A program made the translations under genes and the position numbers. Below are positions 26,624 through 57,756 of a DNA stretch of 57,756 nucleotides, in pieces. Location: the sequence record PV808483.1, one strand, 5' to 3'. The stretch's first letter is position 1. Each line of letters begins with the position of its first letter. The notes under the pieces are model-generated. The model saw nothing but the letters and a program-made list of their open reading frames with translations. It made no database searches and was not told where the DNA came from. This DNA is from a phage.

Positions 26624-27235
26624 TTAATGATAGACCTTGTGTACCTCTTGTTCCAGTTTATACGCGTCGGCGCCTTGTGGGAACGGATACGACACGAGTT
26701 TAACCACGGGGTGTGGAGTTCGTCGTTGTAGTTGTCGTAGTCGCTGTTTTAAGTCGTTTGTAATACCAACTTTAAGCAGAGTAGGACACTGTTTATCGTC
26801 AGTTAACACGTAGAGCGTTCCGTGTTCTGACGGGTTAAAACCTGTTTCAGCGCACTGGGGGCAACCTTGTTTCATTGAAGTGTGATTGTTCGGAGTCTGT
26901 TCAAACACACCGTGTTCTGAACAAATGATTTTCACAGGAGTACACCGATTAACATACTCCACCAACGAATAGTCGTAACGGTCCCCGTGAACTTCACGGG
27001 CGCGTGTAATAAACTCTTCTGTGGTTAAACGTTGTTGCTTAACTGCACATTGGGGACAACCTCTCCCGCGAACATGATTATTAGGAATCTGTTCAAACAC
27101 ACCATGTTCAGGACAGGTGATCTTCACAGGAGTACACCAATTCACATACACCACTAGCGAGTAATCGTATTTGTGCCCATGAACTTCACGGGCACGTGTG
27201 ATAAATTCTTCTGTGGTTAAACGTTTCCTACTCAT
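26624..27235 (-). CDS. endonuclease-like protein: two tandem zinc-ribbon repeats plus a C-terminal T5orf172/GIY-YIG-like domain
   Basis: Repeat TTEEFITRAREVHG-YDYSLV-CTPVKI-C-EHGVFEQ-PNNH-GCPQCA occurs twice; C-terminus GTLYVLTDD...LLKVGITNDLKQRLRQL. Confidence 0.55.
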   Translation of the reverse strand: MSRKRLTTEEFITRAREVHGHKYDYSLVVYVNWCTPVKITCPEHGVFEQIPNNHVRGRGCPQCAVKQQRLTTEEFITRAREVHGDRYDYSLVEYVNRCTPVKIICSEHGVFEQTPNNHTSMKQGCPQCAETGFNPSEHGTLYVLTDDKQCPTLLKVGITNDLKQRLRQLQRRTPHPVVKLVSYPFPQGADAYKLEQEVHKVYH

Positions 27236-37703: not shown

Positions 37704-38144
37704 TTACTCCAGTGAATAGATTGTAATTTCGCAATCAATGTTGTTCAATTTTTCATAAATCAAAGGTCTGACTACTGACCATGATAAACCACCATTTGAA
37801 CAACCTAATCGTGGTAATGAAACTGAACGTATTTTAAAGTGTCTGATGACTTTTATAAGATCGTCCAAACCATATTCAATCCATTGTAATTGTGAAGGAT
37901 TACACCAATGCTCTTTAGTTGGAAAATTAATAATTATCTGATTGTTTTCAGATGTGACAAACATTTTTCCAACTTTTACATGGTGTTGTTCACACGCTTT
38001 TCGGTACTGTTTAAAATTGTCAGGAAAGGTTCTTTTAAACGCTAAAGCAATACCTTTACCCATTACACCAACGCAATTCACCGTGTTTACTAGAGCATGT
38101 GAATTGCTTTTAAGAAGGTCCCCCGTGACTTCTATTACTGACAT
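37704..38144 (-). CDS. macrodomain protein (DarG/TARG1-like ADP-ribose-processing fold)
   Basis: LVNTVNCVGVMGKGIALAFKRTFPDNF and PRLGCSNGGL motifs. Confidence 0.7.
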   Translation of the reverse strand: MSVIEVTGDLLKSNSHALVNTVNCVGVMGKGIALAFKRTFPDNFKQYRKACEQHHVKVGKMFVTSENNQIIINFPTKEHWCNPSQLQWIEYGLDDLIKVIRHFKIRSVSLPRLGCSNGGLSWSVVRPLIYEKLNNIDCEITIYSLE

Positions 38145-44676: not shown

Positions 44677-47355
44677 GTGAGTCAAGAACCACTTCGTTAT
44701 TATCAACTAGAAGCTATCAATAACGTGTGTCAGGCATGGTCAAGCGGTGCTGACGACGTGATTCTTGTGCTTCCCACTGGCTGTCATGCTAAAGACAGTG
44801 AAATTCTTATGTACAACGGTGATGTTATAAAAGTACAGGATGTTTTACCTGGTGATTTATTGATGGGTCGTGATTCATTACCACGAACCGTGTTAGCGTT
44901 AGCTCGTGGCAGAGAAGAAATGTTTGAAATCATCCCAGTCAAAGGGTCACCTTTCCGTGTAAATAAAAATCACATATTACATTTGATACATACTGAATCA
45001 AAAGAAGAAATAGACATTTCTGTAAGTGATTACTTACAGAAATCAAATTATTTCAAACATTGCCACAAGTTGCTTCGTACGGGGGTTGATTTCGAATATC
45101 GCGAACCACCGACTTTAGACCCGTGGTTTGCCGGGATTATGATCGGTGATGGTAGTTACAAATCAGGTACACCACGTCTGACAAATGCAGACTCAAGTAT
45201 TTTAGAAAAGGCTACTTTTTACGCAAACCTTTTTGGATGTGTCTGCAAAGATGTAAAAGGTAACAACTGTGTTACACGTTATTTCGGTTATCCCGGGTCA
45301 TCGCGTTCGGTTAGTAACCCGTTGAGCGATGCGATGAAATCTGATGGATTGTGGGGGAAAATCGCACATGAAAAATCAATACCTGATGTGTATAAAAAAG
45401 GAAGCAGAAACACACGTTTAAACGTTCTGGCAGGATTAATTGATAGCGACGGATATATTTCACATAAGGGCGTTGATTTTGTGTCCAAATCACAGCAGTT
45501 AGCCGCTGATTTAGTGTTCGTTGCAAGAAGCCTGGGGAAAGCCGCGTATTACAAAGCCTGTGTTAAATCATGTCAAACGGGTAATGCAAACATTTACTAC
45601 AGAGTGAGTATTAGTGGCGATTTAAGCGATGTACCATTCGTTAGAAAACATGGTGATTTAACGAGAAAGCAGAAGAAAAATCATTTAGTAACGGGCTTTT
45701 CTGTTCGGTCTGTTGGTGAAGATAATTTTTATGGTTTTATGGTTAACGGTGACAATCTTTATCTTACGTCAGACTTCATCATCCATCATAACAGTGGTAA
45801 AACACGTACTATGGCTGAACTACTAAAATCCGACGGTGTAAAAGTCATCCAGGCACACCGTAAAGAACTGGTTAGTCAAATCGCAATGGCTGTTGCTCGC
45901 CAGGGATTACCACACAGATTTATAGCGCAAAAAGATACTGTTAAGTTTGCAACTAATCAGCAGATGAAAACGCTTGGTTACAGTACCTATTCCCCCGGTG
46001 CTGACATCGTTATTACCAGTTCACAAACGTTAAGAACAAAACAGTACGAACGATGGTACAACGACGTGTCTCTTGTGTTTAGCGACGAAGCGCATCACCT
46101 GGTGCGTGGCACACAGTGGGGAGACTGCCGGGAAAAATTCCCTAACGCTAAAGGTCTGGGTGTTACAGCCACACCGATCCGTGCTGACGGTAAAGGCTTG
46201 GGTCGTCATGCGTCAGGTTACGCAGATCAGATGATCATCGGTCCATCAATGCGTGAGTTAATCAGTCAACAACATCTGGCTGATTATCGTCTGATTATGG
46301 CTGAAACAGACCTGGAATTAACCGCAGAAATGATTTCCCATACCACGGGTGATTACAAACCATCTGCGTTAAAAAAAGCGATGGAAGATTCAAACATTGT
46401 TGGTGATACCGTCAGTACGTGGAAAACATATGCAGATGGCTTACTCACTGTTGTTTTTACGTGTGATGTAGATTCTGCTGAAGCACTTGCAAAAGAATTT
46501 CGTGATGCTGGCATTCCTGCAGAGGCGATCAGCTCACGAAACAGCAATCAGGAACGAGCGGATATCCTGGAACGTTTTGAACGACGTAAGACGCTTGTAC
46601 TGTGTAACAACGATTTATTCGGTGAAGGATACGATTGCCCTGCGATGGAATGTGCTGTAATGGACCGTCCAACAGAATCTTACTCTTTGTTTGTACAACA
46701 AATGGGTCGTCCGTTGCGTTTCAAACCGGGTAAAAAAGCACTGATTATTGATAAAGTCGGTAATGTTCGTCGATTTCTGGCCCGTGGTTTTCCACTTCCA
46801 GATCAGCATTATAACTGGTCTTTAGATGACCGTGACCGTCGTTCATCTAACAGCAGTGGGAACAGTAACACAACATGCACAAACAAGGGTGATCCTGATA
46901 ACGGTATTCCACCGTGTCTGAAGCCTTATCCGTCTGGTCTGCCGTGCTGCCCATATTGTGGTCATGTTCCTGAAAAAGCCGAACGCTCAGGCCCGGATCG
47001 TGTAGAAGGTAATTTACGTGAACTGACACCTGAAGAACTGGAAGAATTACGCCGGGCAGTTGTGATAATCGACCGTGATCCTGTTGCGGTAAAAGAACAA
47101 ATGTTAAACGCGGGTGCACCCCCTGTTGCAGCTTACAGTGCAATGAAAAACATTCAGGCAATGAACGATGCACAGCGTAAATTACGTAGCATGATTACCA
47201 CATGGGCCGGTATTCAGCGTGATAAAGGTATACCCGTTGATGACGCTTACAAGATGTTTTACAGGGTGTTTGGTGTTGATGTACTTAGTGCTCAAGGGTT
47301 ACGTACTCGTGAAGCTAATGAACTCGCTGCAAGGGTTGCAAGTTCATTAATCTGA
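44677..47355 (+). CDS. SF2 (DEAH-type) helicase precursor interrupted by an intein
   Basis: Extein motifs YYQLEA, LPTG|SGKT (Walker A split by the intein), FSDEAHH; C-terminal Cys cluster CLKPYPSGLPCCPYCGH. Confidence 0.75.
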   Translation: MSQEPLRYYQLEAINNVCQAWSSGADDVILVLPTGCHAKDSEILMYNGDVIKVQDVLPGDLLMGRDSLPRTVLALARGREEMFEIIPVKGSPFRVNKNHILHLIHTESKEEIDISVSDYLQKSNYFKHCHKLLRTGVDFEYREPPTLDPWFAGIMIGDGSYKSGTPRLTNADSSILEKATFYANLFGCVCKDVKGNNCVTRYFGYPGSSRSVSNPLSDAMKSDGLWGKIAHEKSIPDVYKKGSRNTRLNVLAGLIDSDGYISHKGVDFVSKSQQLAADLVFVARSLGKAAYYKACVKSCQTGNANIYYRVSISGDLSDVPFVRKHGDLTRKQKKNHLVTGFSVRSVGEDNFYGFMVNGDNLYLTSDFIIHHNSGKTRTMAELLKSDGVKVIQAHRKELVSQIAMAVARQGLPHRFIAQKDTVKFATNQQMKTLGYSTYSPGADIVITSSQTLRTKQYERWYNDVSLVFSDEAHHLVRGTQWGDCREKFPNAKGLGVTATPIRADGKGLGRHASGYADQMIIGPSMRELISQQHLADYRLIMAETDLELTAEMISHTTGDYKPSALKKAMEDSNIVGDTVSTWKTYADGLLTVVFTCDVDSAEALAKEFRDAGIPAEAISSRNSNQERADILERFERRKTLVLCNNDLFGEGYDCPAMECAVMDRPTESYSLFVQQMGRPLRFKPGKKALIIDKVGNVRRFLARGFPLPDQHYNWSLDDRDRRSSNSSGNSNTTCTNKGDPDNGIPPCLKPYPSGLPCCPYCGHVPEKAERSGPDRVEGNLRELTPEELEELRRAVVIIDRDPVAVKEQMLNAGAPPVAAYSAMKNIQAMNDAQRKLRSMITTWAGIQRDKGIPVDDAYKMFYRVFGVDVLSAQGLRTREANELAARVASSLI
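44782..45792 (+). mobile_element. intein (337 aa) with LAGLIDADG homing endonuclease domain, inserted in the helicase P-loop
   Basis: Begins CHAKDSEIL right after LPTG, contains LAGLIDSDGYIS, ends IIHHN followed by extein SGKT. Confidence 0.8.
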
Positions 47356-47396
47356 TGGTAATCTGCATAGAAATATTTTAAACGTAAGGAACTGTA

Positions 47397-47888
47397 ATGA
47401 CAACGCTTGAACAATGGGCGATTCGTCACGGTGTTAGTCAGATGGCGTTGTACGAGTTATACGCTCTTTATCAGCCTGACGGAACACCACACGAAGATGG
47501 TGTAAGTGAAAGCGCCACCAGTAAAGAGTGTGAACTGATTGCTGCCCGTGCTGGTCAGCGTATCTGGCGTAATAACTCAGGTGCTCTGAAAAACGAAAAA
47601 GGAATGATGGTTCGTTATGGTCTTGGTAACACCAGTGCGAAAATCAACGCTGTTATGAAGTCAAGCGACTACATCGGCATTAAAACCAAAATCGTTACAC
47701 CGGATATGATCGGTTCGAAAGTGGGCGTCTTTATTGCTGCCGAAATGAAACGCCCTGACTGGCACATGATCCCCAGTGATAAACGTGCACAAGCACAGGC
47801 CACTTTCGGTGCGATTGTTGAAAACGCAGGTGGTGAATTTCGTTTCATCACTCACCCTTCACAATTTGAAAAATGGATTAAACAATGA
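47397..47888 (+). CDS. VRR-NUC domain nuclease
   Basis: RNNSGAL ... SDYIG ... EMK pattern. Confidence 0.65.
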   Translation: MTTLEQWAIRHGVSQMALYELYALYQPDGTPHEDGVSESATSKECELIAARAGQRIWRNNSGALKNEKGMMVRYGLGNTSAKINAVMKSSDYIGIKTKIVTPDMIGSKVGVFIAAEMKRPDWHMIPSDKRAQAQATFGAIVENAGGEFRFITHPSQFEKWIKQ

Positions 47889-48160
47889 ATAAAAAATCTT
47901 TAATCGCAACAATTGTAAGTCCTGAATACAAACAAAAACGTGAATCAATAACGTCTGAAATTGTTTCTGAATTTGATGACGTTAAAAAAACAAACCAACG
48001 CGTATCACGTCTGCAAAAACTGATTGATAACCACGGTATTGAAGCTGTTGCTAAACGTCTGAACGTTACTGAAATTCATGTTAAACGTAATCTGCTTACC
48101 GGGCGATCTGCTATCAACCTGGTCAAACTGATGGCTGCTGAACGTCAGTTCGGAGCGTAA
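47885..48160 (+). CDS. hypothetical protein, possible DNA-binding
   Basis: 91-aa ORF overlapping the upstream stop. Confidence 0.4.
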   Translation: MNKKSLIATIVSPEYKQKRESITSEIVSEFDDVKKTNQRVSRLQKLIDNHGIEAVAKRLNVTEIHVKRNLLTGRSAINLVKLMAAERQFGA

Positions 48161-48163
48161 ATT

Positions 48164-50518
48164 ATGAAAGGGTTACTGAACCGTAAACAGTGGGTCATGT
48201 GGCGGCTTGAGACAGTCGCCGATCGTCCAAAACCAACGAAAGTACCATACAGCCCGGTACACGGTTATAAAGCCAGTACCACTAACCCTAATGACTGGTC
48301 TGACTATCACACCGCGTTAGGTATGGCGCAAATGTACGGCATGTCTGGTGTTGGTTTTGTATTCACAGAAAACGACCCTTATTTCTTTATTGATGTCGAT
48401 AACTGTCTGGTAGATCAGGCAACAGCTACGTGGTCACCACTAGCGCATGAATTCGTAAACCGTTTTCCAAATGCTTACACTGAAGTCAGTCAGTCAGGAA
48501 CAGGTTTGCACATCATCTGTGCTTATACCAGCATACCGGAAGGTTTTAACAGTCTGAACGACCAGAAAACCGGGCTGGAAATGTATTGGCGTGATCGTTT
48601 CGTCGCGATGACGCTCACGGGTAATGGTGATGTTGATATTGATTATACCCAGGGTATTCATGATTCTATTGCCCGGTATGGTCGCATCCGTTCAGACCGT
48701 TCCGCACGCTGGACAACAGCACCCTGTGATGACTGGTCAGGCCCGGCAGACGATGATGAACTGATTAAAATGGCGTTAAATTCGTCCAGTGCTGCTTCAG
48801 TATTTGGTAATAAAGCGTCGTTTGCGGATCTGTGGAATGCAAACGTTGAACGCCTGTCTGTGTCATATCCCAGCGACCAGGGAAAAGACTACAATGCATC
48901 TGCCGCTGATGCTGCTCTGTGCTCACACCTTGCTTTCTGGACCGGGAAAGATTGCGAACGTATTGAACGTCTATTTAACCGTTCCGGACTGGTTCGTGGT
49001 AAATGGACAGATCGTCAGGATTACCGTGAAAACACGATTCTTGGCGCTGTGGAACGTTGTGATACTGTGTATCGTAGTCAACCGACAATGACACCAGAAC
49101 TGATGAAAGCAGTCACACCAGCGCCTACCGTCGTTCCTAATGGTGGAACACCTGCGTATATGAGTGTGAAACCCGGTGAAGGTGCATATGGTTCAAACCA
49201 CACGGTTAACGCATCCACTTTCGTTAATAACTATTATCCGAACAACACATTGATTTTCGTCCAGCAACAGCCGTACCGGTTCAACGGTCGCGTGTGGGAA
49301 CGTGTCAGTGAAGATGAACTGAAACATCAAATTTCTATGGCAATGCTTGCCAGCGAACCAAAAGCTGACGTGATTAATGGTACGTACAAGGTTTTGTCGT
49401 ATTTATTCACACGCGCTGATCGTGAGCTTGGAACATGGCCCGGTGTTGATGTATCACACTATATTGTTTGTCAGAACGGGATACTGGATGTACACACGGG
49501 TAAATGTGATGCACATAACCCGGACTTCTTTACAACCAGTATTTTACCGTATAGCTATGATCCGTTTGCCCGTGCACCAGCGTTTGAACAGTTTCTTAAT
49601 ACAACTCTGGAAGGTGATCAGGAACGTATTGCATTGTTGCAGGAATGGCTGGGTTACATGCTTGTCAACTCGTATGACTATCAGAAAGCGATGTTGTTGA
49701 TTGGTGCACCACGTTCCGGTAAAGGCACGATTGGTCGCATCATTCAGGCACTGGTAGGTGATGAAGCGTACGCAGGGATCACACTGGAGGGTTTAGCTAG
49801 TGATGCGGTACTTGAAACTGTGCTGGATAAATCTGTGCTGTTTATCGGTGATGCTCACAGTGTGTCCGGGCCTGATCGCAACCGAATTCTGGACCGTTTC
49901 AAATCTATTACAGGTTGTGATGCGATTCCGGTTAATCGTAAGTATAAAGGTGCATGGAACGGTCGTTTACCTGGACGTATGACACTGGCTGCTAACAACA
50001 TCCCGGCATTTGCTGATGATTCCGGTGCAATGGCTAACCGTTTGCTGATCCTACCGTTCAACATTTCGTTCCTGGGTCGTGAAGATACTACTCTGGAAGC
50101 ACGACTGATGAAAGAACTACCGGGGATCTGTAACTGGGCGATTGAAGGTTTACAACGGTTACGTGCAAACGGACGGTTTACTGAACCAAAAGCAAGTCTG
50201 GAAGAACGTCAGGAAATTATGGATCAACAATCACCACTTAGAAGTTTTATCAGAGATTGTTGCGAATTGGTATCTGATGGTGAGGTGCACACTGAAGAAC
50301 TCTATGGTCGTTATCGTCTCTGGAAAACACAGGAAGGTGGTCCAGCAATGACTAAAACTGCATTTAGTCGGGCGTTTAAATCCACCCTTCGTGGTAAAGT
50401 GAAAAAAGACGTTGTTAATATAAATAACGTACGATTAAACGGTTTCAGGGGTATTCGTCTTCTCCCTTTTCAGTCAACAGCTAATGTAGTGCCTTTCCCA
50501 CCAGTGAGTAATGGTTAG
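48164..50518 (+). CDS. primase/helicase: AEP primase-polymerase N-terminus, PriCT-like region, SF3 helicase C-terminus
   Basis: FIDVDNC and SQSGTGLHI (AEP motifs); LLIGAPRSGKGT Walker A in the C-terminal half. Confidence 0.7.
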   Translation: MKGLLNRKQWVMWRLETVADRPKPTKVPYSPVHGYKASTTNPNDWSDYHTALGMAQMYGMSGVGFVFTENDPYFFIDVDNCLVDQATATWSPLAHEFVNRFPNAYTEVSQSGTGLHIICAYTSIPEGFNSLNDQKTGLEMYWRDRFVAMTLTGNGDVDIDYTQGIHDSIARYGRIRSDRSARWTTAPCDDWSGPADDDELIKMALNSSSAASVFGNKASFADLWNANVERLSVSYPSDQGKDYNASAADAALCSHLAFWTGKDCERIERLFNRSGLVRGKWTDRQDYRENTILGAVERCDTVYRSQPTMTPELMKAVTPAPTVVPNGGTPAYMSVKPGEGAYGSNHTVNASTFVNNYYPNNTLIFVQQQPYRFNGRVWERVSEDELKHQISMAMLASEPKADVINGTYKVLSYLFTRADRELGTWPGVDVSHYIVCQNGILDVHTGKCDAHNPDFFTTSILPYSYDPFARAPAFEQFLNTTLEGDQERIALLQEWLGYMLVNSYDYQKAMLLIGAPRSGKGTIGRIIQALVGDEAYAGITLEGLASDAVLETVLDKSVLFIGDAHSVSGPDRNRILDRFKSITGCDAIPVNRKYKGAWNGRLPGRMTLAANNIPAFADDSGAMANRLLILPFNISFLGREDTTLEARLMKELPGICNWAIEGLQRLRANGRFTEPKASLEERQEIMDQQSPLRSFIRDCCELVSDGEVHTEELYGRYRLWKTQEGGPAMTKTAFSRAFKSTLRGKVKKDVVNINNVRLNGFRGIRLLPFQSTANVVPFPPVSNG

Positions 50519-50532
50519 TCGTTGCACAAGGA

Positions 50533-50577
50533 CGTGTAAAATAATTCTTGACGAATTACAGATATGTGCGCTATAGT
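50533..50577 (+). promoter_or_regulatory. sigma70-like promoter, UP element + TTGACG, 18-bp spacer, TATAGT
   Basis: Copy of the conserved element in forward orientation. Confidence 0.55.
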
Positions 50578-50608
50578 CTGTACATCAAGTGAACAAGGAG
50601 TGATTGTT

Positions 50609-50821
50609 ATGAAACCACGCTACCGATTAATGAGACTTTCACAGTGTCCTAACGGAACACGGTTTTATTTTTATCGTCTGAAGCAACTATTACCTTTCAC
50701 GTTAATTGCTAACAGCTTCAAGAAACACGAAAGTATTTATCACGAGGGTCATGATTTTAATATAACCGCGCGAAAATACAGAACGTCTATTTATAAACTT
50801 GTGTGGGCTAAGGTGAACTAA
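50609..50821 (+). CDS. hypothetical small protein
   Basis: ORF 50564..50821 trimmed to the ATG at 50609 with AGGAG upstream. Confidence 0.45.
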   Translation: MKPRYRLMRLSQCPNGTRFYFYRLKQLLPFTLIANSFKKHESIYHEGHDFNITARKYRTSIYKLVWAKVN

Positions 50822-50822
50822 A

Positions 50823-51020
50823 ATGAAAAACATATTTGACCGTTTAATTACTGTTATTGTATTTCTTGTATCCGTAACGCTCGCGTCTTGTATTGTCGGA
50901 CTAATGACCCGTGGTAATCATGCAGAAACTCCGTGGTGGTTTCTGGCAGGTATTGGATTATTAGCGGCTGCTGCATCAATTGGCGCTTGCATGTGGGGAG
51001 TGAAAAACGATCATGACTGA
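50823..51020 (+). CDS. small membrane protein
   Basis: 65 aa with two hydrophobic helices. Confidence 0.45.
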   Translation: MKNIFDRLITVIVFLVSVTLASCIVGLMTRGNHAETPWWFLAGIGLLAAAASIGACMWGVKNDHD

Positions 51021-51228
51021 GTTCGGTGCTGTAATCAAAAAAGAAGACCGTTATGCACATATTGATACCCGGATTACCTGGGTTGATATCAGTGAAGCTA
51101 CTCTGTTCAGTTCAACTTACATGGCTGGTGTTGCACTTAAAGCACTTCGTGATCAAGGTTTCAATTGCAGAAAAGTAACAGTTGCATCTGTTAAAATCAC
51201 GCGGATCGTCGAGGAGACAGAAGGGTGA
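51013..51228 (+). CDS. hypothetical small protein
   Basis: 71-aa ORF overlapping neighbours. Confidence 0.4.
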   Translation: MTEFGAVIKKEDRYAHIDTRITWVDISEATLFSSTYMAGVALKALRDQGFNCRKVTVASVKITRIVEETEG

Positions 51229-51905
51229 ATATTGTATGGTCGTTATTCGATGGTTCCGGGATTATGGGTTTACCGTGGGCTAAGGCTGACTATCAGGTTT
51301 ATTGCTTTAATGCTGATTCCGGTAATCACGGAGAATATAAAATCAAAGATGAACACCCAAATCTTCATTACGTTAATCAGTGGATTGACCCACAATTTGC
51401 AATTAAGCAGGAAATACTGGGAACACCTTTACCGTCAATTATTTTTGGTTTTCCTGATTGCACCCTGTTTGCTCAAAGCGGTTCGCAACATGACCGGGAT
51501 GACGCTGAACTACAGTATGCACTGGCAAACGCAAAACTGATCCGTGAACTCGGAGAACGTTATAACGTACCCTGGATGGTCGAAAACCCTGTCGGTGCTT
51601 TATCACGTCCTGAAATGATGGGGACACCTGACGCTTATTTTCAACCGTGGGAATATGGCGGTTATATGACAACAGATGATAAACCGTTTCACCCTAAAAT
51701 GCCGATGTTTGACGGATACACGAAGAAAACATGTCTGTGGTTCGGTAACGGTTTCAAAATGCCTGAAAAACGTCCCGGACCGATTAATATTGGTTTCTTC
51801 TGGGGCTGGAAATATCTGGGTGGTAAGTCTGAAACAACTAAACAATTACGTTCATTAACCCCGCGTGGCTTTGCTCGCGCTGTATTTGAGGCTAATAAAC
51901 AATGA
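51225..51905 (+). CDS. short C5-cytosine-methyltransferase-like protein lacking an obvious target-recognition domain
   Basis: LFDGSG (motif I-like), FGFPDCTLFAQSG (PC-motif-like), MVENPVG (ENV-like), C-terminal LTPRGFARA. Confidence 0.5.
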   Translation: MNIVWSLFDGSGIMGLPWAKADYQVYCFNADSGNHGEYKIKDEHPNLHYVNQWIDPQFAIKQEILGTPLPSIIFGFPDCTLFAQSGSQHDRDDAELQYALANAKLIRELGERYNVPWMVENPVGALSRPEMMGTPDAYFQPWEYGGYMTTDDKPFHPKMPMFDGYTKKTCLWFGNGFKMPEKRPGPINIGFFWGWKYLGGKSETTKQLRSLTPRGFARAVFEANKQ

Positions 51906-52297
51906 TAATTGTCGTCACAGGTGGTCGTGACTTTAACGACAGAACAGCAGTGTTTTCCGCGTTAGGACTACTTCACAAACAATTTCCGGTTACCGAACTG
52001 ATTGAAGGTGGTGCGTCAGGTGTTGATAACCTGTGTAAGCAATGGGCGCAATTACACGGTATTCCTGTGCGTAGTTGCCCGGCAGCGTGGGACGATCTGA
52101 CTGTACCTGGTGCGGTTGTAAAACAAGGTGAGCACGGGCCTTATAACGCTGTTGCAGGTCATCAACGTAATCAGGCGATGTTAGAGGGTGAACCACGCCC
52201 TACATACGGTGTTGTGTTCCCCGGTGGGCGTGGTACGGCTGATATGCACCGTCGCATGTTGAAAGCTGGTTTAACCGTGTGGGTTCCGTATCCTTAA
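51902..52297 (+). CDS. SLOG-fold protein (DUF2493/YpsA-like)
   Basis: VVTGGRDFND ... LIEGGASGVDNL ... WA pattern. Confidence 0.5.
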   Translation: MIIVVTGGRDFNDRTAVFSALGLLHKQFPVTELIEGGASGVDNLCKQWAQLHGIPVRSCPAAWDDLTVPGAVVKQGEHGPYNAVAGHQRNQAMLEGEPRPTYGVVFPGGRGTADMHRRMLKAGLTVWVPYP

Positions 52298-52334
52298 AAT
52301 AATTCTTGACAGATTACCAACCCTCCCCGATAAT
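52295..52334 (+). promoter_or_regulatory. sigma70-like promoter, UP element + TTGACA, 17-bp spacer, GATAAT
   Basis: Copy of the conserved element. Confidence 0.55.
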
Positions 52335-52335
52335 T

Positions 52336-52360
52336 AGCCTCAGTTAACACACATGAGGCT
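52336..52360 (+). promoter_or_regulatory. palindromic element AGCCTCA-N11-TGAGGCT between the -10 and the start codon; inverted copy of the element at 15256..15279
   Basis: Nearly the exact reverse complement of the other copy (one indel); overlaps the Shine-Dalgarno GAGG. Confidence 0.5.
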
Positions 52361-52368
52361 AAACACAA

Positions 52369-53136
52369 ATGGCTAACATTAACTCCCTTCGCAAACTGTC
52401 TGATACCGATAAAACCAACGTAAAACGTGGTAATGCGTATCGTATTGATCCGCGTATTATCAAGATTCGTCCAGGACATAACCCACGCGGTGTGTTTACC
52501 GACAACTACTGGGAAACTGAAGCAGCACTGGCACACATTGAAAACTTTCGTCAGGCTTATACTAACGGCGATTTCGTTCCACCCATCGTGGTACAGGTTG
52601 TTGACGGTGTTCCGTATGTCCAGGATGGTGAGCATCGTTTACGTGGTGTATTGGCAGCTATTGACGCCGGGACGCCGATTCTGACAGTAGACGTTGTTGA
52701 ATCGTCCGGTGACGAACTACAACAGACCCTGACACTGTTAAAAGGTAATGAAGGTAAACCGTGGTCCCCTGTTGAACGTGCTGTTATTTACGGTCGTTTC
52801 CGTTCATATGGCATGAGTGTTGAGCAGATCGCTACACAGGTCGGTAAAACCGTTCAGCACGTTTACGAACAACTGAATATTCTTGATATGCCGCTGGAAC
52901 TTAAACGTCGTATTCAGAACGGCGAAATCAGCGCGTCAGCAGCCATTCGCCAGTTTAAAGCAGGTGATAAAGAACCAGTAGTAACGCGTCGTCCGCCTGC
53001 TAAACTGGTACGGTCTGCAGTGGAAGCAATCCGTGGTGAATGGTCTGTAACCCGTTCGGAAGGTGGTAAAGTCCTGGTTGAACTTACCGCTGAACAGTTT
53101 GAAGCGTTAAAAGCACTGAAGGAGCACCAGTTATGA
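52369..53136 (+). CDS. ParB-like nuclease domain protein
   Basis: VQDGEHRLRG motif in an N-terminal ParB/Srx-like region. Confidence 0.55.
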   Translation: MANINSLRKLSDTDKTNVKRGNAYRIDPRIIKIRPGHNPRGVFTDNYWETEAALAHIENFRQAYTNGDFVPPIVVQVVDGVPYVQDGEHRLRGVLAAIDAGTPILTVDVVESSGDELQQTLTLLKGNEGKPWSPVERAVIYGRFRSYGMSVEQIATQVGKTVQHVYEQLNILDMPLELKRRIQNGEISASAAIRQFKAGDKEPVVTRRPPAKLVRSAVEAIRGEWSVTRSEGGKVLVELTAEQFEALKALKEHQL

Positions 53137-53324
53137 AAAACCGTAAAGCAAAGATTCTGTTAGTTCGTAGAAACGCTCCTGGCGTCTGGCAGTGGGTGAG
53201 ACTCAGCAACCGACGGATGGGGTTGATGAAATATTACGGGATGATGGATTGCAGTTTTTGCAAAAAAACCCAGCGCGGCGCAAAACCGCTGGAAAAACCA
53301 CTTTCGCATTAAAGGAGAGTGATA

Positions 53325-53521
53325 TGGCAACCAACAATCGTAAAGCCAAGATGCTTATTTCCCGTGTATACAGCCGTTGCTATCCCAGCCAGTGGTTGAG
53401 AGTTAGCAATCGCCGTATGGTGTTGTACTTATATTCTGGAATTGCCAGAGATGGAATCAAAGATAAGCGTAGCGCGGCGCAAAACCGCTGGAAAAACCAC
53501 TTGCGTACTAAAGGAGAGTGA
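53325..53521 (+). CDS. hypothetical small basic protein
   Basis: 65 aa; shares a ~60-bp leader and initiation region with the next gene. Confidence 0.4.
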
Positions 53522-53522
53522 T

Positions 53523-53786
53523 ATGGCAACTTTAACAAAAAAAGAACGGGCATGGTTGAATGAATTACAGGACGTTCTTGATCGCTGCCCATCACCGAAA
53601 AAAATTGGTTTTTACACCATTGGCGATAAAAGCATTTACCTGTATGACCTACGCCGCATGGATGAAATCATGGAGGCTCTTGATAATCGTTCGTCGGTGG
53701 ATTGGTGTGTTGCTGTCCATGATATGAATGCCGGATTTGATGAAAAGATTTTGTTCCCCTCATCAGTTGAAAGCACTGCGGGTTAA
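53523..53786 (+). CDS. hypothetical small protein
   Basis: 88 aa; duplicated leader upstream. Confidence 0.45.
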   Translation: MATLTKKERAWLNELQDVLDRCPSPKKIGFYTIGDKSIYLYDLRRMDEIMEALDNRSSVDWCVAVHDMNAGFDEKILFPSSVESTAG

Positions 53787-53796
53787 GGAGTAACAC

Positions 53797-54465
53797 ATGA
53801 CCACTATTACCAAAGAGCGACTGCTGACAATCAGGCAATGGCGCGAAACATACGGACCTGGTAGCAATGTTGTACTGCCAGCAGAAGAAGCGGAAGAACT
53901 GGCACGAATTGCTCTGGCATCGCTGGAAGCAGAACCAGTTGCTTATATTTTCAAACATCCGGCCGGGAAATTATTCTGGGCTTTAACGGATGAAAGCAAT
54001 AAAGAGCAACCGGACGTTATTCCTGTTTATGCTGACTCACCTGCGCCGGTTGTGCCGGATGAAATAGACGTAAACGATGTACCAAGGGCGGTGACATATT
54101 TCAAGACACACAGAGATTGTTACGCAGATGGCTGGAACGCCTGCCGCGCCGCCATGCTTCAGTCCGGAAACTTTCGGGAAAACAAGAATTCGTCAACCAA
54201 TAATTTTCGGGAAATCGCGGAAACGTCAACCAACTATCCGGTAATTCCTAGTGAGGTGTTGTCCGCAATCCTGAAGGTTGCCAAGATTCGTGCCGATTTC
54301 GATGATTTTGACGGTGACAGGCGAGGTATCGGTGATTGTCTGGATGAGGCTGAGCAAGAGCTTATCGTTACCATTAACAAATATGCCAGTCAGTTAGCAG
54401 CAGAACCGATAGCGACTAATGAAAATCGTTGGGTTGCCAAACTAACCGGGAGTAAAAAGAAATGA
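53797..54465 (+). CDS. hypothetical protein
   Basis: 222-aa ORF with AGGAG upstream. Confidence 0.5.
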   Translation: MTTITKERLLTIRQWRETYGPGSNVVLPAEEAEELARIALASLEAEPVAYIFKHPAGKLFWALTDESNKEQPDVIPVYADSPAPVVPDEIDVNDVPRAVTYFKTHRDCYADGWNACRAAMLQSGNFRENKNSSTNNFREIAETSTNYPVIPSEVLSAILKVAKIRADFDDFDGDRRGIGDCLDEAEQELIVTINKYASQLAAEPIATNENRWVAKLTGSKKK

Positions 54466-54632
54466 CTAAAATCTACATTACAAAATATGCATTAACAACT
54501 GGTGTTTTCAGTGTAGATGCTAAAATAAAATCAGATGGTACAAGTGCAACTTTCTACGACAAAAGAAACATACGACAGTTTGTTTATGGTAAAGATTTTT
54601 GGTTGACACCGGAAGAGGCTTTTATTGATTGA
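54462..54632 (+). CDS. hypothetical small protein (56 aa)
   Basis: ATGA overlap with the upstream stop; below the ORF-track cutoff. Confidence 0.3.
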   Translation: MTKIYITKYALTTGVFSVDAKIKSDGTSATFYDKRNIRQFVYGKDFWLTPEEAFID

Positions 54633-54721
54633 GAGCGTCGTCGAATAAACAAATTAAAATCTCTGGAGAAACAGAAACAAAAAATCGAAAGTTTAAACTT
54701 TCAAATTATTAAGGAACATTT

Positions 54722-54946
54722 ATGACTATCCGACTGATGAATCCAACCGTTGCCCGTGATATTAAACCGGGTGACAAGATTGAAGTATTTAACGAATGGT
54801 ACTGGGTACGTTATATCAATTACCACGGGGCAACACTTACGCTTCGCTTACAACCGGAAGATGAACCGCTATCACCATTTTTCGAAAACGACCGCGTTGT
54901 GGTGACAGTACCAGAAGATCTAATGATTGATGTCGAGGTGCGTTAA
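54722..54946 (+). CDS. hypothetical small protein
   Basis: 74-aa ORF. Confidence 0.4.
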   Translation: MTIRLMNPTVARDIKPGDKIEVFNEWYWVRYINYHGATLTLRLQPEDEPLSPFFENDRVVVTVPEDLMIDVEVR

Positions 54947-55270
54947 ATGACTGTATATGAAATGGAAGGTTTTCTTCGTGGTAAATGTGTTCCGGGTGAT
55001 CTGAAAGTTAACGAAACAAACGCTGAATATCTTGTCCGTAAGTTCGGTGAACTTGAAAATAAATGTGCGGCGCTGGCTGAGGAGAATGTTCGACTTAAGT
55101 CAGGTATAGCTGGCCTGATACATCTCGGTATTCGATACGCAGATGTTGATGTAATGAAAATTGCTGGAGATGCACAGCTTTCTACCCCATGCACTGATGA
55201 CATCATAAACAGCATTATCCAAAAAGAAACCAGTGATAAACGTGCACAAGCACAAAATGTTCCCTCGTAA
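54947..55270 (+). CDS. hypothetical protein
   Basis: 107-aa ORF. Confidence 0.4.
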   Translation: MTVYEMEGFLRGKCVPGDLKVNETNAEYLVRKFGELENKCAALAEENVRLKSGIAGLIHLGIRYADVDVMKIAGDAQLSTPCTDDIINSIIQKETSDKRAQAQNVPS

Positions 55271-55499
55271 CGGTTTGAAGTGGTCCGCACGAGATCTGGC
55301 GTTATTAAAAATTAATGCAGGAAAGATCAGTGCGGATGAAATAGCGTATTACCTTCGCCGGGACGTTGAAGCGGTACACATTAAAGCGTCACGTCTCGGT
55401 ATATCACTGGTAACCAATAAATGTAAACGTGGTCATGCGCGAGTTTACAAAAAAGGTAGATGGCGCTGTCCTGAGTGTAGAAAATTAAAAGGGTATTAA
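55257..55499 (+). CDS. small zinc-ribbon protein, possible regulator
   Basis: C-terminal CKRGH...CPECRK; ORF 55233..55499 with start placed at the ATG at 55257 overlapping the upstream stop. Confidence 0.4.
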   Translation: MFPRNGLKWSARDLALLKINAGKISADEIAYYLRRDVEAVHIKASRLGISLVTNKCKRGHARVYKKGRWRCPECRKLKGY

Positions 55500-55501
55500 A
55501 T

Positions 55502-56071
55502 ATGACACCTGAACAATTCGCAACAGCAGCACACGGTGATCAACTTCGTAAGTATACCAACGACCCATATGTGAACCACTGCCGGAACGTTGCTGAACTG
55601 GTTAAACGCTATGGTGGTACGCCGGATATGGTTACCGCTGCCTGGCTGCATGACGTCGTTGAAGATACGCCCGTGACCGTGGGTGATGTGTGTTCGCAGT
55701 TCGGTGAGACTGTGGCACGTTATGTTGATCAGCTTACTGATGTGAGTCGTCCACACCACGGCAACCGTGTTAAGCGTAAAGCACGGGACATCGACCATTT
55801 ATCACGGGCTGAACCTGTGGTGAAAACTATAAAACTGTGTGATCTGCTGGATAACACATCTTCAATTGACCGACACGATCCGAAGTTTGCTGTAACATAC
55901 CTGGCTGAAAAACAACTCATGCTTGCTCACCTGTCAGACGCCAGTAATCAGGAGTTATACGCGCTTGTTGAGCGTGAATTGTTTAAAGCCAAATACAAAC
56001 TAACGAACGTCCAGTTAACCGCGTTTGACAAACACTACGACGCACTGGTTAAAGCGATGGGGGAGTTGTGA
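55502..56071 (+). CDS. HD-domain phosphohydrolase resembling a small alarmone ((p)ppGpp) hydrolase
   Basis: AAHGDQLRKYTNDPYVNHCRNVAELV and AAWLHDVVEDT match the RelA/SpoT hydrolase-domain signature as I recall it. Confidence 0.65.
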   Translation: MTPEQFATAAHGDQLRKYTNDPYVNHCRNVAELVKRYGGTPDMVTAAWLHDVVEDTPVTVGDVCSQFGETVARYVDQLTDVSRPHHGNRVKRKARDIDHLSRAEPVVKTIKLCDLLDNTSSIDRHDPKFAVTYLAEKQLMLAHLSDASNQELYALVERELFKAKYKLTNVQLTAFDKHYDALVKAMGEL

Positions 56072-56295
56072 TTATGATTGCAGATCAACTACTGTGTAAA
56101 CTACGCGCGGACCTGATTAATAAAAAGTTTTGTCGTGATATAAACAAACCACTGGCATTTGTAAAAGTGCTCAACGTCTACAGAGCAGGTCGTGGTTTTA
56201 AGGTCATGTTCAGATACGGTGATGACGGTCCTGTCGTATATTGTGGTTACACCAATTTTTTGAAACGTTACCCGGAGGAACTAACACATGAATAA
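56068..56295 (+). CDS. hypothetical small protein
   Basis: 75-aa ORF. Confidence 0.4.
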   Translation: MIMIADQLLCKLRADLINKKFCRDINKPLAFVKVLNVYRAGRGFKVMFRYGDDGPVVYCGYTNFLKRYPEELTHE

Positions 56296-56542
56296 AGCAT
56301 CACCTGTAGAAATACGCAAATGTCTTGAAATGGCAAACAGTCTTGCACATGCCGGGATTAGATTTGTTCCTGTACCTGTAACCAGTGATGATGAATTTAA
56401 TTCGCTGGTTTCTCATTCTTACGGGATACTGGACAAAATAGCAGACGATTGTGATACGACTAACCGCCAGTTCGAAAGCCTCAGCAACCACAAACATCAC
56501 TTCATCAACGGCACTTGCGTAGAGTGCCTGAAAAGTGAATAA
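56288..56542 (+). CDS. hypothetical small Cys-containing protein
   Basis: 84 aa with C-terminal CVEC. Confidence 0.4.
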   Translation: MNKASPVEIRKCLEMANSLAHAGIRFVPVPVTSDDEFNSLVSHSYGILDKIADDCDTTNRQFESLSNHKHHFINGTCVECLKSE

Positions 56543-56646
56543 CTACCCGTTCATATTAATTATCAGTGCGCTCTATGTGGCGCACGTTTTCTATGAGGTG
56601 TACCGATGACTATAAGACGTGTTGTGTGTGCAGAAACTGACTAAAA

Positions 56647-56667
56647 AGCGGGGCTAATTACCCCGCT
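56647..56667 (-). terminator. terminator AGCGGGG-CTAATTA-CCCCGCT with the T-run on the reverse strand
   Basis: Hairpin followed on the reverse strand by TTTTT; lies between convergent genes. Confidence 0.65.
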
Positions 56668-56671
56668 ATCT

Positions 56672-57475
56672 TTATTGACCCATCATATCTTTATACATCA
56701 TCAAAACAACATCATCCGGCATATTATCTACATCGCAATGCGGGTTATGTGATAACGCATACAGTCTGATTTTCTCCTTCAAATCGCTGACATCGACTAC
56801 AGGTGCTTCCACTCGTGTTACAGGTGCTTCCACTCGTGATACAGATGCTTCCACTCGTGCTACAGGTGGTTCCACTCGTGCTACAGGTGGTTCCACTCGT
56901 GCTACAGGTGGTTCACAAACCATCACGTTAAACGGTGTTCCGGTGCCTTCGTATTTTTCAAGCAAATCGACCATTACGTTTACACATTCCGGGATCCAGC
57001 CCCGGCGCAAACCATTCTGAATCCAACTGTCAGTAATTGTGTGTTCGTTTAAATTCCTGCGTAACACGTATCTTGCACATTCAAAATTACCGCACATCGC
57101 CTCAAACCGTGTCCACACGTCGTGACCGTGAACAGCTTCCAGGATCTGTGAATCAACGTATCTGACACGTTGCCAGTAGTTATTAGCAAAACGCCTGTGT
57201 GGTAATTTCTGACGCAGTTCGGTAACCGGTATTGTGTGTTTAAGAACAATGTTTTCGTCAGAATGTTGTACTGTCAAGGGTGACAGTGTGAAGTCAGTAA
57301 TCTCTTCAAGAATAATACTGATCGTTTCATATTTAGGATGAAACCTACCGCTTAACCATTGATTGTAACGACCAACAGTTACCTTAACACCTCGACGATT
57401 AAGGTATTCAACAGCATTTTGTACCCCGCCTTTTAAATCTATCAATTCGTCTAAAAGGTTCTTTTTCATTATCAC
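56672..57475 (-). CDS. hypothetical protein with heptad tandem repeat (VEPPVAR, about six copies)
   Basis: 267 aa; 21-bp tandem repeats at about 56803-56925; transcribed away from the iteron region. Confidence 0.5.
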   Translation of the reverse strand: MIMKKNLLDELIDLKGGVQNAVEYLNRRGVKVTVGRYNQWLSGRFHPKYETISIILEEITDFTLSPLTVQHSDENIVLKHTIPVTELRQKLPHRRFANNYWQRVRYVDSQILEAVHGHDVWTRFEAMCGNFECARYVLRRNLNEHTITDSWIQNGLRRGWIPECVNVMVDLLEKYEGTGTPFNVMVCEPPVARVEPPVARVEPPVARVEASVSRVEAPVTRVEAPVVDVSDLKEKIRLYALSHNPHCDVDNMPDDVVLMMYKDMMGQ

Positions 57476-57756
57476 CCCTCCTTATTCAACCACGGGTAAA
57501 GCATAACTCGTGTTGGCAGCTAGTGCAAGATGTGCTTTATATGTTAGTGTATTTACACCTAATGCATGTTGTGCTTTAGCAGCTAGTGCAAGATGCACGT
57601 TGTGTATTAGCTGTTAGTGCACGTTGTGTATCTATGTTGGTACAGCTAATGCACGTTGTGAATTATATAGTGCATATAGTGCATTAAAGTTATACTTAAC
57701 ATAGATTTCGTCATGTTTATTTTTTGATCAACCCCTCATTATCTTTTTATAGATAA
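57476..57756. repeat. iteron-rich AT-rich region continuing into 1..300; many copies of (T)AGTGCA(A/C)G(A/T)TG(T/C)
   Basis: Motif copies read at about 57520-57545, 57585-57612, 57613-57628, 57649-57665 and 57668-57690. Confidence 0.6.

Follow-up and report, generated by a model that had tools for sequence, protein, structure and literature searches.

A PaSpo-like small alarmone hydrolase in the accessory region of Escherichia phage vB_EcoS_PJ16, with a possible part in counter-defence

The 57,756-nt stretch of DNA analysed here (record PV808483.1; hereafter the window) is the whole genome of Escherichia phage vB_EcoS_PJ16 (OQ955832.1), with 99.9% identity over the 3.8 kb queried and with equal length and coordinates, and our subject is PJ16_095, a plus-strand gene at 55502-56071 that runs from ATG to TGA and encodes a protein of 189 residues. 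We call this protein a small alarmone hydrolase (SAH), that is, a stand-alone RelA/SpoT homologue (RSH) hydrolase, here of a PaSpo-like kind, because its motifs, its profile matches, its predicted fold and the lack of a detectable synthetase all agree. As far as sequence can establish kinship, it is near certain that PJ16_095 is a hydrolase-only RelA/SpoT homologue whose active site looks catalytically intact, and by analogy with its relatives it is probable that the protein acts as an alarmone hydrolase. Public records, OQ955832.1, MZ726797.1 and PQ783785.1 among them, name the gene inconsistently: it is a 'polyphosphate hydrolase' in PJ16 (the coding sequence in OQ955832.1) and in AVIO78A, a 'metal-dependent phosphohydrolase' in Bas82 and a 'RelA/SpoT family (p)ppGpp synthetase' in PDP46 (PQ783785.1, 54434-55000). 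The first of these labels is vague, the last is wrong because the protein contains no synthetase domain, and both can now be corrected. Two minus-strand open reading frames, at 55496-55798 and 55729-55920, overlap PJ16_095 in antisense; they are without support as genes, and we take them to be chance occurrences.

A preliminary description of this DNA had recognized signatures of the RelA/SpoT hydrolase domain in the protein, and these are indeed in place: HxxQxR as H11-G-D-Q14-L-R16, PY..H as P22-Y23-V-N-H26, and AAxLHDVVEDT as A46-A-W-L-H50-D51-V-V-E54-D55-T56. The domain identity read from them is borne out by the profile searches that the same description proposed as a check, and the predicted fold concurs. 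Pfam HD_4 (PF13328) matches residues 5-135 with 57.7 bits, above its gathering score of 27.2 (E 1.5e-15), beside a weaker match to the generic Pfam HD family, and PHROG 990, 'metal-dependent phosphohydrolase', matches at E 2e-37. HD_4 and HD are the sole Pfam matches in the 189 residues, in agreement with the earlier statement that a synthetase domain is lacking, and NCBIfam TIGR00691 (spoT_relA) is matched only over positions 4-123 of its 687, the hydrolase part, with a score of 74.6 that lies far under the full-length cut-off of 499. A sequence search of the PDB returned 22 matches, nearly all of them named as SAHs or as Rel/SpoT-family proteins, headed by Listeria Lmo0812 (4e-15), human MESH1 (5e-14), Drosophila Mesh1 and several bacterial Rel/SpoT proteins.

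The active site was compared in an alignment of PJ16_095 with E. coli SpoT (MG1655), segments of MESH1 and Lmo0812, the PaSpo protein of Salmonella phage SSU5 and three further homologues. The preliminary description had made its assignment depend on conservation of the metal-binding His and Asp residues, and all four are kept: H26, H50, D51 and D114, which in the light of the MESH1 and RelSeq structures we take to be the metal ligands, align with H35, H61, D62 and D122 of MESH1 and with H48, H72, D73 and D139 of SpoT. On the same grounds, E54 and D55 are presumably the catalytic pair, and they align with E65/D66 of MESH1 and E76/D77 of SpoT; among the residues that we likewise assume to contact the substrate (R16, K17, Y23, N118 and S121), R16, Y23 and N118 align with R24, Y32 and N126 of MESH1 and with R39, Y45 and N143 of SpoT. 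In an alignment of 66 homologues, 23 columns never vary, among them those of H11, R16, K17, Y18, Y23, H26, H50, D51, E54, D114 and N118. Mapped through SpoT R39 and Bacillus subtilis Rel R44, R16 appears to correspond to R43 of Thermus thermophilus Rel (TtRel), and it is followed by Lys; in B. subtilis Rel, the R44Q substitution at the equivalent Arg abolishes hydrolysis and serves as a hydrolase-defective control. Cysteines adjoin the predicted metal ligands, with H26-C27 in place of H-P and C113-D114 in place of A-D. Both are kept in orthologues of 85-88% identity and are not found in SSU5 PaSpo, which has Pro and Ala at these positions, in bacterial homologues or in the wider family.

An AlphaFold2 model computed from the 66-homologue alignment has 11 helices and no low-confidence segment (mean predicted local distance difference test score 97.1; predicted template-modelling score 0.92). 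When it was compared with the PDB by Foldseek, the best 50 matches listed were all SAHs or Rel/SpoT hydrolase domains. Human MESH1 came top, with template-modelling (TM) scores of 0.77 (query-normalised) and 0.81 (target-normalised) and a root-mean-square deviation of 2.0-2.1 Å over about 170 columns, and was followed by a Pseudomonas aeruginosa SAH, Corynebacterium glutamicum RelH, full-length SpoT, T. thermophilus Rel and a Leptospira SAH. In the model, the last two helices (residues 150-188) belong to the common SAH fold and do not form an added domain. A basic loop, S82-R-P-x-x-G87-N-R89-x-x-R92-K93, characterizes the family and is three residues longer than its MESH1 equivalent.

Within the SAHs, the evidence is strongly suggestive that PJ16_095 shares a sequence family with SSU5 PaSpo, apart from the other SAH groups sampled. 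SSU5_099 (AFL47026.1), the PaSpo of phage SSU5 with which the Hauryliuk and Atkinson groups have done their experiments, is 51% identical to PJ16_095 over residues 6-147 (BLASTP E 2e-44). A family hidden Markov model (HMM) of 115 homologues, from which PJ16 and orthologues of more than 80% identity were left out to avoid circularity, gives PJ16_095 228 bits and SSU5 PaSpo 188 bits, as against 84 bits for Lmo0812, 82 for MESH1, 74 for SpoT and 40, over about 70 aligned residues, for gp220 of phage PVP-SE1, which from its annotation and HD_4-like sequence we take to be a PbcSpo-type SAH. Because scores of 228 and 188 bits stand so far from the 40-84 bits of the others, we place PJ16_095 in the family of the SSU5 protein, and its membership of the PaSpo subfamily in the scheme of Atkinson (2011) and Jimmy (2020) is very likely, on the basis of profile scores rather than of those authors' own HMMs or phylogeny.

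The comparison with SSU5 PaSpo is thus the closest available, and it has clear limits. Both proteins are stand-alone phage RSH hydrolases with equal catalytic motifs, and both genes sit amid small accessory genes with an Eaa/DUF551-type gene nearby. On the other hand, SSU5 is a temperate phage-plasmid of about 103 kb whereas PJ16 is a virulent 9NA-type siphovirus of 58 kb, the C-terminal 40-65 residues of the two proteins are unrelated in sequence, and the experimental tests that exist concern the SSU5 enzyme and not PJ16_095. The PbcSpo hydrolases, which include the PVP-SE1 SAH and ATfaRel of C. marina, are likewise hydrolase-only RSH proteins, and the phage-encoded one neutralises all toxic small alarmone synthetases (toxSAS) assayed, but they form another subfamily, as the low score of gp220 on our HMM illustrates. 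Metazoan MESH1 (HDDC3; PDB 3NR1, 5VXA, 9CHY), the best structural match, has identical metal and catalytic residues but is only 27-28% identical overall and lacks the longer basic loop. Aph1, from a Bacteroides prophage (PDB 7SMG), resembles PJ16_095 as a phage-associated single-domain HD alarmone hydrolase and guards against a toxic synthetase; it is nonetheless remote (sequence E 0.0076; query-normalised TM about 0.48), lacks the two C-terminal helices and adjoins its own toxin. At the position of R16, Aph1 has an Asp, D24, which helps to exclude guanine nucleotides and is equivalent to R43 of T. thermophilus Rel, and Aph1 variants bearing D24R acquired ppGpp hydrolysis (PMC10083569). Because PJ16_095 has Arg where Aph1 has D24, an enzyme that is broad or accepts guanine would be expected. 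The long RSH proteins, such as E. coli SpoT and Rel, share the hydrolase domain and its motifs, and PJ16_095 differs from them in lacking their synthetase, TGS and ACT domains.

The position of the gene suggests that it is translated within an operon with its upstream neighbour. At the PJ16_094/PJ16_095 junction (55483-55501, plus strand), the TAA of PJ16_094 (55497-55499) ends 2 nt before the hydrolase ATG, an AAGGG run resembling a Shine-Dalgarno sequence lies about 9 nt upstream of that ATG, and downstream the PJ16_095 stop codon is in turn separated by 2 nt from the annotated start of the gene after it; expression as part of an operon fits because such 2-nt gaps lie on both sides. The gene is third from last in a co-oriented plus-strand block (44677-56542) that holds helicase/primase-type replication genes, a methyltransferase and a ParB-like gene, and then an accessory array. 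Beyond the end of this block, and before a convergent gene at 56672-57475, a GC-rich hairpin at 56647-56667 would act as a terminator on both strands, and the annotation of phage Sasha has a terminator at the equivalent place. Apart from this hairpin, promoter and terminator scans found sites no more numerous than in shuffled controls, and beside the hydrolase gene they revealed neither a strong promoter nor an internal terminator that convinces.

The array in which the hydrolase lies is variable. The segment at 53518-56229 (plus strand), in which about nine small genes without an assigned function accompany the hydrolase, is missing from Sasha in a blastn comparison of window positions 50001-57756 with the Sasha and Bas82 loci. 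Relative to Bas82 (KarinMuster), the region is mosaic cassette by cassette: the block at 55502-56077 is 97.2% identical in nucleotide sequence from gene boundary to gene boundary, and the genes that flank it differ between PJ16 and Bas82 on both sides. No DNA match to the hydrolase was seen in phages Sergei or Solent. Such a pattern marks an accessory gene that the phage can do without and that is exchanged as a cassette within a diversity hotspot. The gene is at the same time under strong purifying selection, as the PJ16 and Bas82 copies, which are 98.9% identical, differ by 14 synonymous and only 2 non-synonymous codons (pN/pS 0.043). PADLOC defence models gave zero matches, and for that lack we reject the reading as a known defence component; the PJ16 genome contains no tRNA genes, which could have offered an alternative escape from tRNA-targeting defence.

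Hydrolases of this kind are not confined to PJ16, a 9NA-type siphovirus classed with Nonanavirus/Sashavirus. Its closest relatives are Bas82, AVIO78A, PDP46 and the Sashavirus phages 536P12 and BDX09P1, and its more distant ones are the Salmonella phages Sasha, Sergei, Solent and FSL SP-062/069; near-identical copies of the gene occur in E. coli Sashavirus-type phages, and copies of about 90% identity in FSL SP-062/069. The description of PJ16 as lytic is consistent with the evidence, since the type phage 9NA is described as virulent and as devoid of lysogeny genes (PMC4153490) and the PJ16 record has no annotated integrase or repressor. Phage-borne alarmone hydrolases are indeed widespread: tblastn of phage genomes found matches in 343 records, with SSU5 among the best beyond the close copies just named, and homologues of about 50% identity occur in 374 plasmid records, the majority non-mobilizable. 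Among the plasmids listed from Klebsiella and other enterobacteria, most measure 100-110 kb, as SSU5-like phage-plasmids do. A search of a large protein database gave 1,866 matches below 1e-5; among the matches listed, the homologues are stand-alone proteins of 151-231 residues (typically about 160-190) with HD_4, with or without generic HD, and no other domain. A Burkholderia homologue adjoins a phage lysozyme gene and small open reading frames and probably sits in a prophage, and a 55% identical metagenomic homologue lies amid small open reading frames, upstream of the terminase, on a 42-kb phage contig; at neither of these two inspected loci is there a neighbouring synthetase. Blastn in distant mode found no DNA-level match to the gene in 5,426 complete E. 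coli genomes, which rules out a recent capture from the host chromosome.

Several other genes of the window deserve mention in their own right. Within the variable segment, PJ16_090 (53797-54465, plus strand) is a mosaic DUF551/EaA-like gene, especially at 54000-54423, and its 3' part is 99.8% identical in nucleotide sequence to upf89.5 of phage P7 and shares about 98.6% identity with segments of three further sources, Salmonella phage SJ46, Shigella phages and Stx-converting phages. Such identities indicate a recent exchange between the virulent PJ16 and temperate enterobacterial phages, and SJ46 is, by coincidence, also the source of CapRel-SJ46. The convergent gene beyond the hairpin, PJ16_098 (56672-57475, minus strand), encodes a 267-residue protein of unknown function (phrog_25538) with six tandem 7-residue repeats, (E/A)(P/A)(P/S)V(A/S/T)RV, in a copy number unlike that of Sasha, whose annotation includes a 'direct tandem repeat region'. 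Farther away, PJ16_068 (37704-38144, minus strand), annotated as 'hypothetical protein', carries a Macro domain (PF01661, E 9e-20). Since domains of this type bind ADP-ribose or hydrolyse it, PJ16_068 is a candidate for undoing the effects of defences or toxins that work by ADP-ribosylation. PJ16_085 (51902-52297, plus strand; 131 residues) matches Pfam YAcAr (PF10686, a YspA/cpYpsA-related SLOG family; E 1e-19) and is kept in Sasha and Bas82; its relatives are annotated 'GTP-binding domain', and a SLOG domain that stands alone in this way could be a receptor for a signal derived from a nucleotide. Amid the tail genes, the 'hypothetical protein' PJ16_055 (26624-27235, minus strand) has T5orf172/MUG113 (GIY-YIG-like) and DUF723/treble-clef zinc-finger matches, which suggests a homing-endonuclease-like element, and it adjoins a gene annotated 'superinfection immunity protein'.

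What such an enzyme might do for the phage can be approached through its characterized relatives. SSU5 PaSpo and PVP-SE1 PbcSpo each neutralised all five toxSAS against which they were assayed in E. coli, namely CapRel, PhRel, PhRel2, FaRel2 and FaRel (PMC7229694, Table 1), and the discussion in the same paper, by Jimmy et al. in 2020, proposes that incoming phages could evade alarmone-mediated defence by means of encoded alarmone hydrolases. PaSpo-SSU5 is said to strip from tRNA the modification that FaRel2 adds (PMC11245113), its co-expression enabled the production of CapRel-SJ46 (PMC9712102), and MESH1 and ATfaRel restore aminoacylation competence to tRNA pyrophosphorylated at its CCA end. 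Two toxSAS defences are relevant in the host of PJ16: CapRel-SJ46 restricts coliphages and has 100% identical copies in E. coli prophages, and PANGU is a defence, functional in E. coli, whose toxSAS makes pppGpp. Because CapRel-SJ46 and PANGU function in E. coli, counter-defence is plausible within the host range of the phage.

On this basis, we propose that PJ16_095 is a PaSpo-type SAH, a metal-dependent (probably Mn2+-dependent) single-domain HD enzyme that would remove the 3'-pyrophosphate from ribose and that would be produced in infected E. coli from the replication/accessory operon. Both this activity and its breadth we infer from the SSU5 homologue and from other SAHs, and the likely substrates are (p)ppGpp, (p)ppApp and tRNA that bears a pyrophosphate on its 3'-CCA end. 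In this scenario, the enzyme would undo the products of toxic small alarmone synthetases deployed in abortive infection, both the tRNA pyrophosphorylation of CapRel-type effectors and the alarmones of (pp)pApp- or pppGpp-making toxSAS such as FaRel and the PANGU GRel effector, and as a side effect would keep (p)ppGpp made by RelA/SpoT low. We regard counter-defence as the main role, with the lowering of alarmones secondary to it, as rather likely, though we hold this view with some reserve. A narrower form of the proposal is that the true target in E. coli is pyrophosphorylated tRNA and not free alarmone, so that PJ16_095 would be a tRNA 3'-end repair enzyme that beats CapRel-type immunity downstream of sensing, with R83, R89, R92 and K93 of the basic loop touching the acceptor stem; this we consider possible but on the doubtful side, and the contact between loop and tRNA is speculation.

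The main competitor is a role in host physiology, in which the chief task of the enzyme would be to destroy the (p)ppGpp that RelA and SpoT raise as infection drains amino acids and nucleotides, so that synthesis of rRNA, tRNA and ribosomal proteins, primase activity and translation keep running for phage production. Its biochemistry is the same as that of counter-defence, and the evidence from family, fold and active site applies to it equally; R16 stands at the guanine-stacking position, as in (p)ppGpp hydrolases, and the gene shares its predicted operon with replication genes. Jimmy et al. cite links between alarmone accumulation and phage infection (PMC7229694), and the 2025 genome paper on phage Adele suggests a stringent-response role for another phage SAH (PMC12846349). 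Nonetheless, a hypervariable accessory array is more typical of defence and counter-defence than of core takeover genes, the gene is dispensable and has a patchy distribution among these phages, being absent from Sasha and without a DNA match in Sergei and Solent, and E. coli already possesses SpoT. As the main function, we therefore find takeover of host physiology unlikely, if still worthy of serious attention, and blunting of the stringent response and neutralisation of toxSAS are each plausible for PJ16_095 and need not exclude one another. Less probable again, indeed improbable in our estimation, is that the protein resembles MESH1 in function as well as in fold and strips a 2'- or 3'-phosphate from NADPH, 3'-phosphoadenosine-5'-phosphosulfate (PAPS) or an unknown signal, thereby reshaping host metabolism or degrading some other immune signal. 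Human MESH1 is the top structural match, its complexes with NADPH and PAPS included, it is reported to be an NADPH phosphatase besides a (p)ppGpp hydrolase, RSH hydrolases are described as chemically versatile, and PJ16 also encodes the Macro and YAcAr SLOG domains described above, which are related to nucleotide signals. Yet on our HMM the PaSpo proteins, PJ16_095 and SSU5 PaSpo (188-228 bits), stand far from MESH1 (82 bits), PaSpo is functionally tied to the products of toxSAS, and the bacterial XccSAH, which lacks the nicotinamide-riboside motif of MESH1, is about 40-fold poorer on NADPH.

PJ16_095 might also be the immunity partner of a toxic synthetase carried by the phage itself, in the manner of ATfaRel or Aph1, and the genes of several characterized SAHs, those two included, do lie next to one for a toxic synthetase, in some cases within a phage. 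Pfam scans of 20 proteins, which were either neighbours of PJ16_095 or larger products without annotation, found no RelA_SpoT domain, however, and when all 303 six-frame segments of the window were searched by phmmer for the SpoT synthetase region, the best E was 0.45. Because these searches detect no synthetase-like open reading frame anywhere in the genome, we conclude that PJ16_095 does not serve as antitoxin to a toxin carried by the phage. The neighbours of the gene are unlike between PJ16 and Bas82, and the homologue contexts inspected are without a synthetase, so that this reading is essentially refuted and retains barely any probability.

Some observations do weigh against counter-defence as the principal role, and we set them out together. 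An identity of 51% with SSU5 PaSpo is no guarantee of an equal substrate range, and the unusual residues C27 and C113 might alter metal preference or redox sensitivity. Counter-defence and a stringent-response role are inseparable by sequence. In the literature searched, we found no infection experiment that shows a benefit from a phage SAH, the reported evidence being co-expression rescue, and the phrase 'alarmone hydrolase' is absent from the anti-defence catalogue papers that our search returned. Phage SAHs are also not mentioned in PMC11782079.

Regardless of which role prevails, PJ16_095 is best described as a sound functional annotation and not as a new principle: comparable phage enzymes and the idea of counter-defence were published in 2020, and both roles raised in the preliminary description are already in the literature, counter-defence with Jimmy et al. 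(2020) and the stringent response with the 2025 phage paper. What the gene does offer is an accessible system. Bas82, which belongs to the public BASEL collection and can be grown on a K-12 derivative of E. coli whose O16 antigen has been restored, has a near-identical gene, and because it does, and because CapRel-SJ46 and PANGU work in E. coli, the choice between counter-defence and the stringent response is directly testable. If pyrophosphorylated tRNA should prove to be the true target, PaSpo-type genes would represent the first demonstrated case of a virulent coliphage that counters toxSAS defence with an enzyme, and this function would explain the spread of the PaSpo-type family over hundreds of phage and phage-plasmid records.

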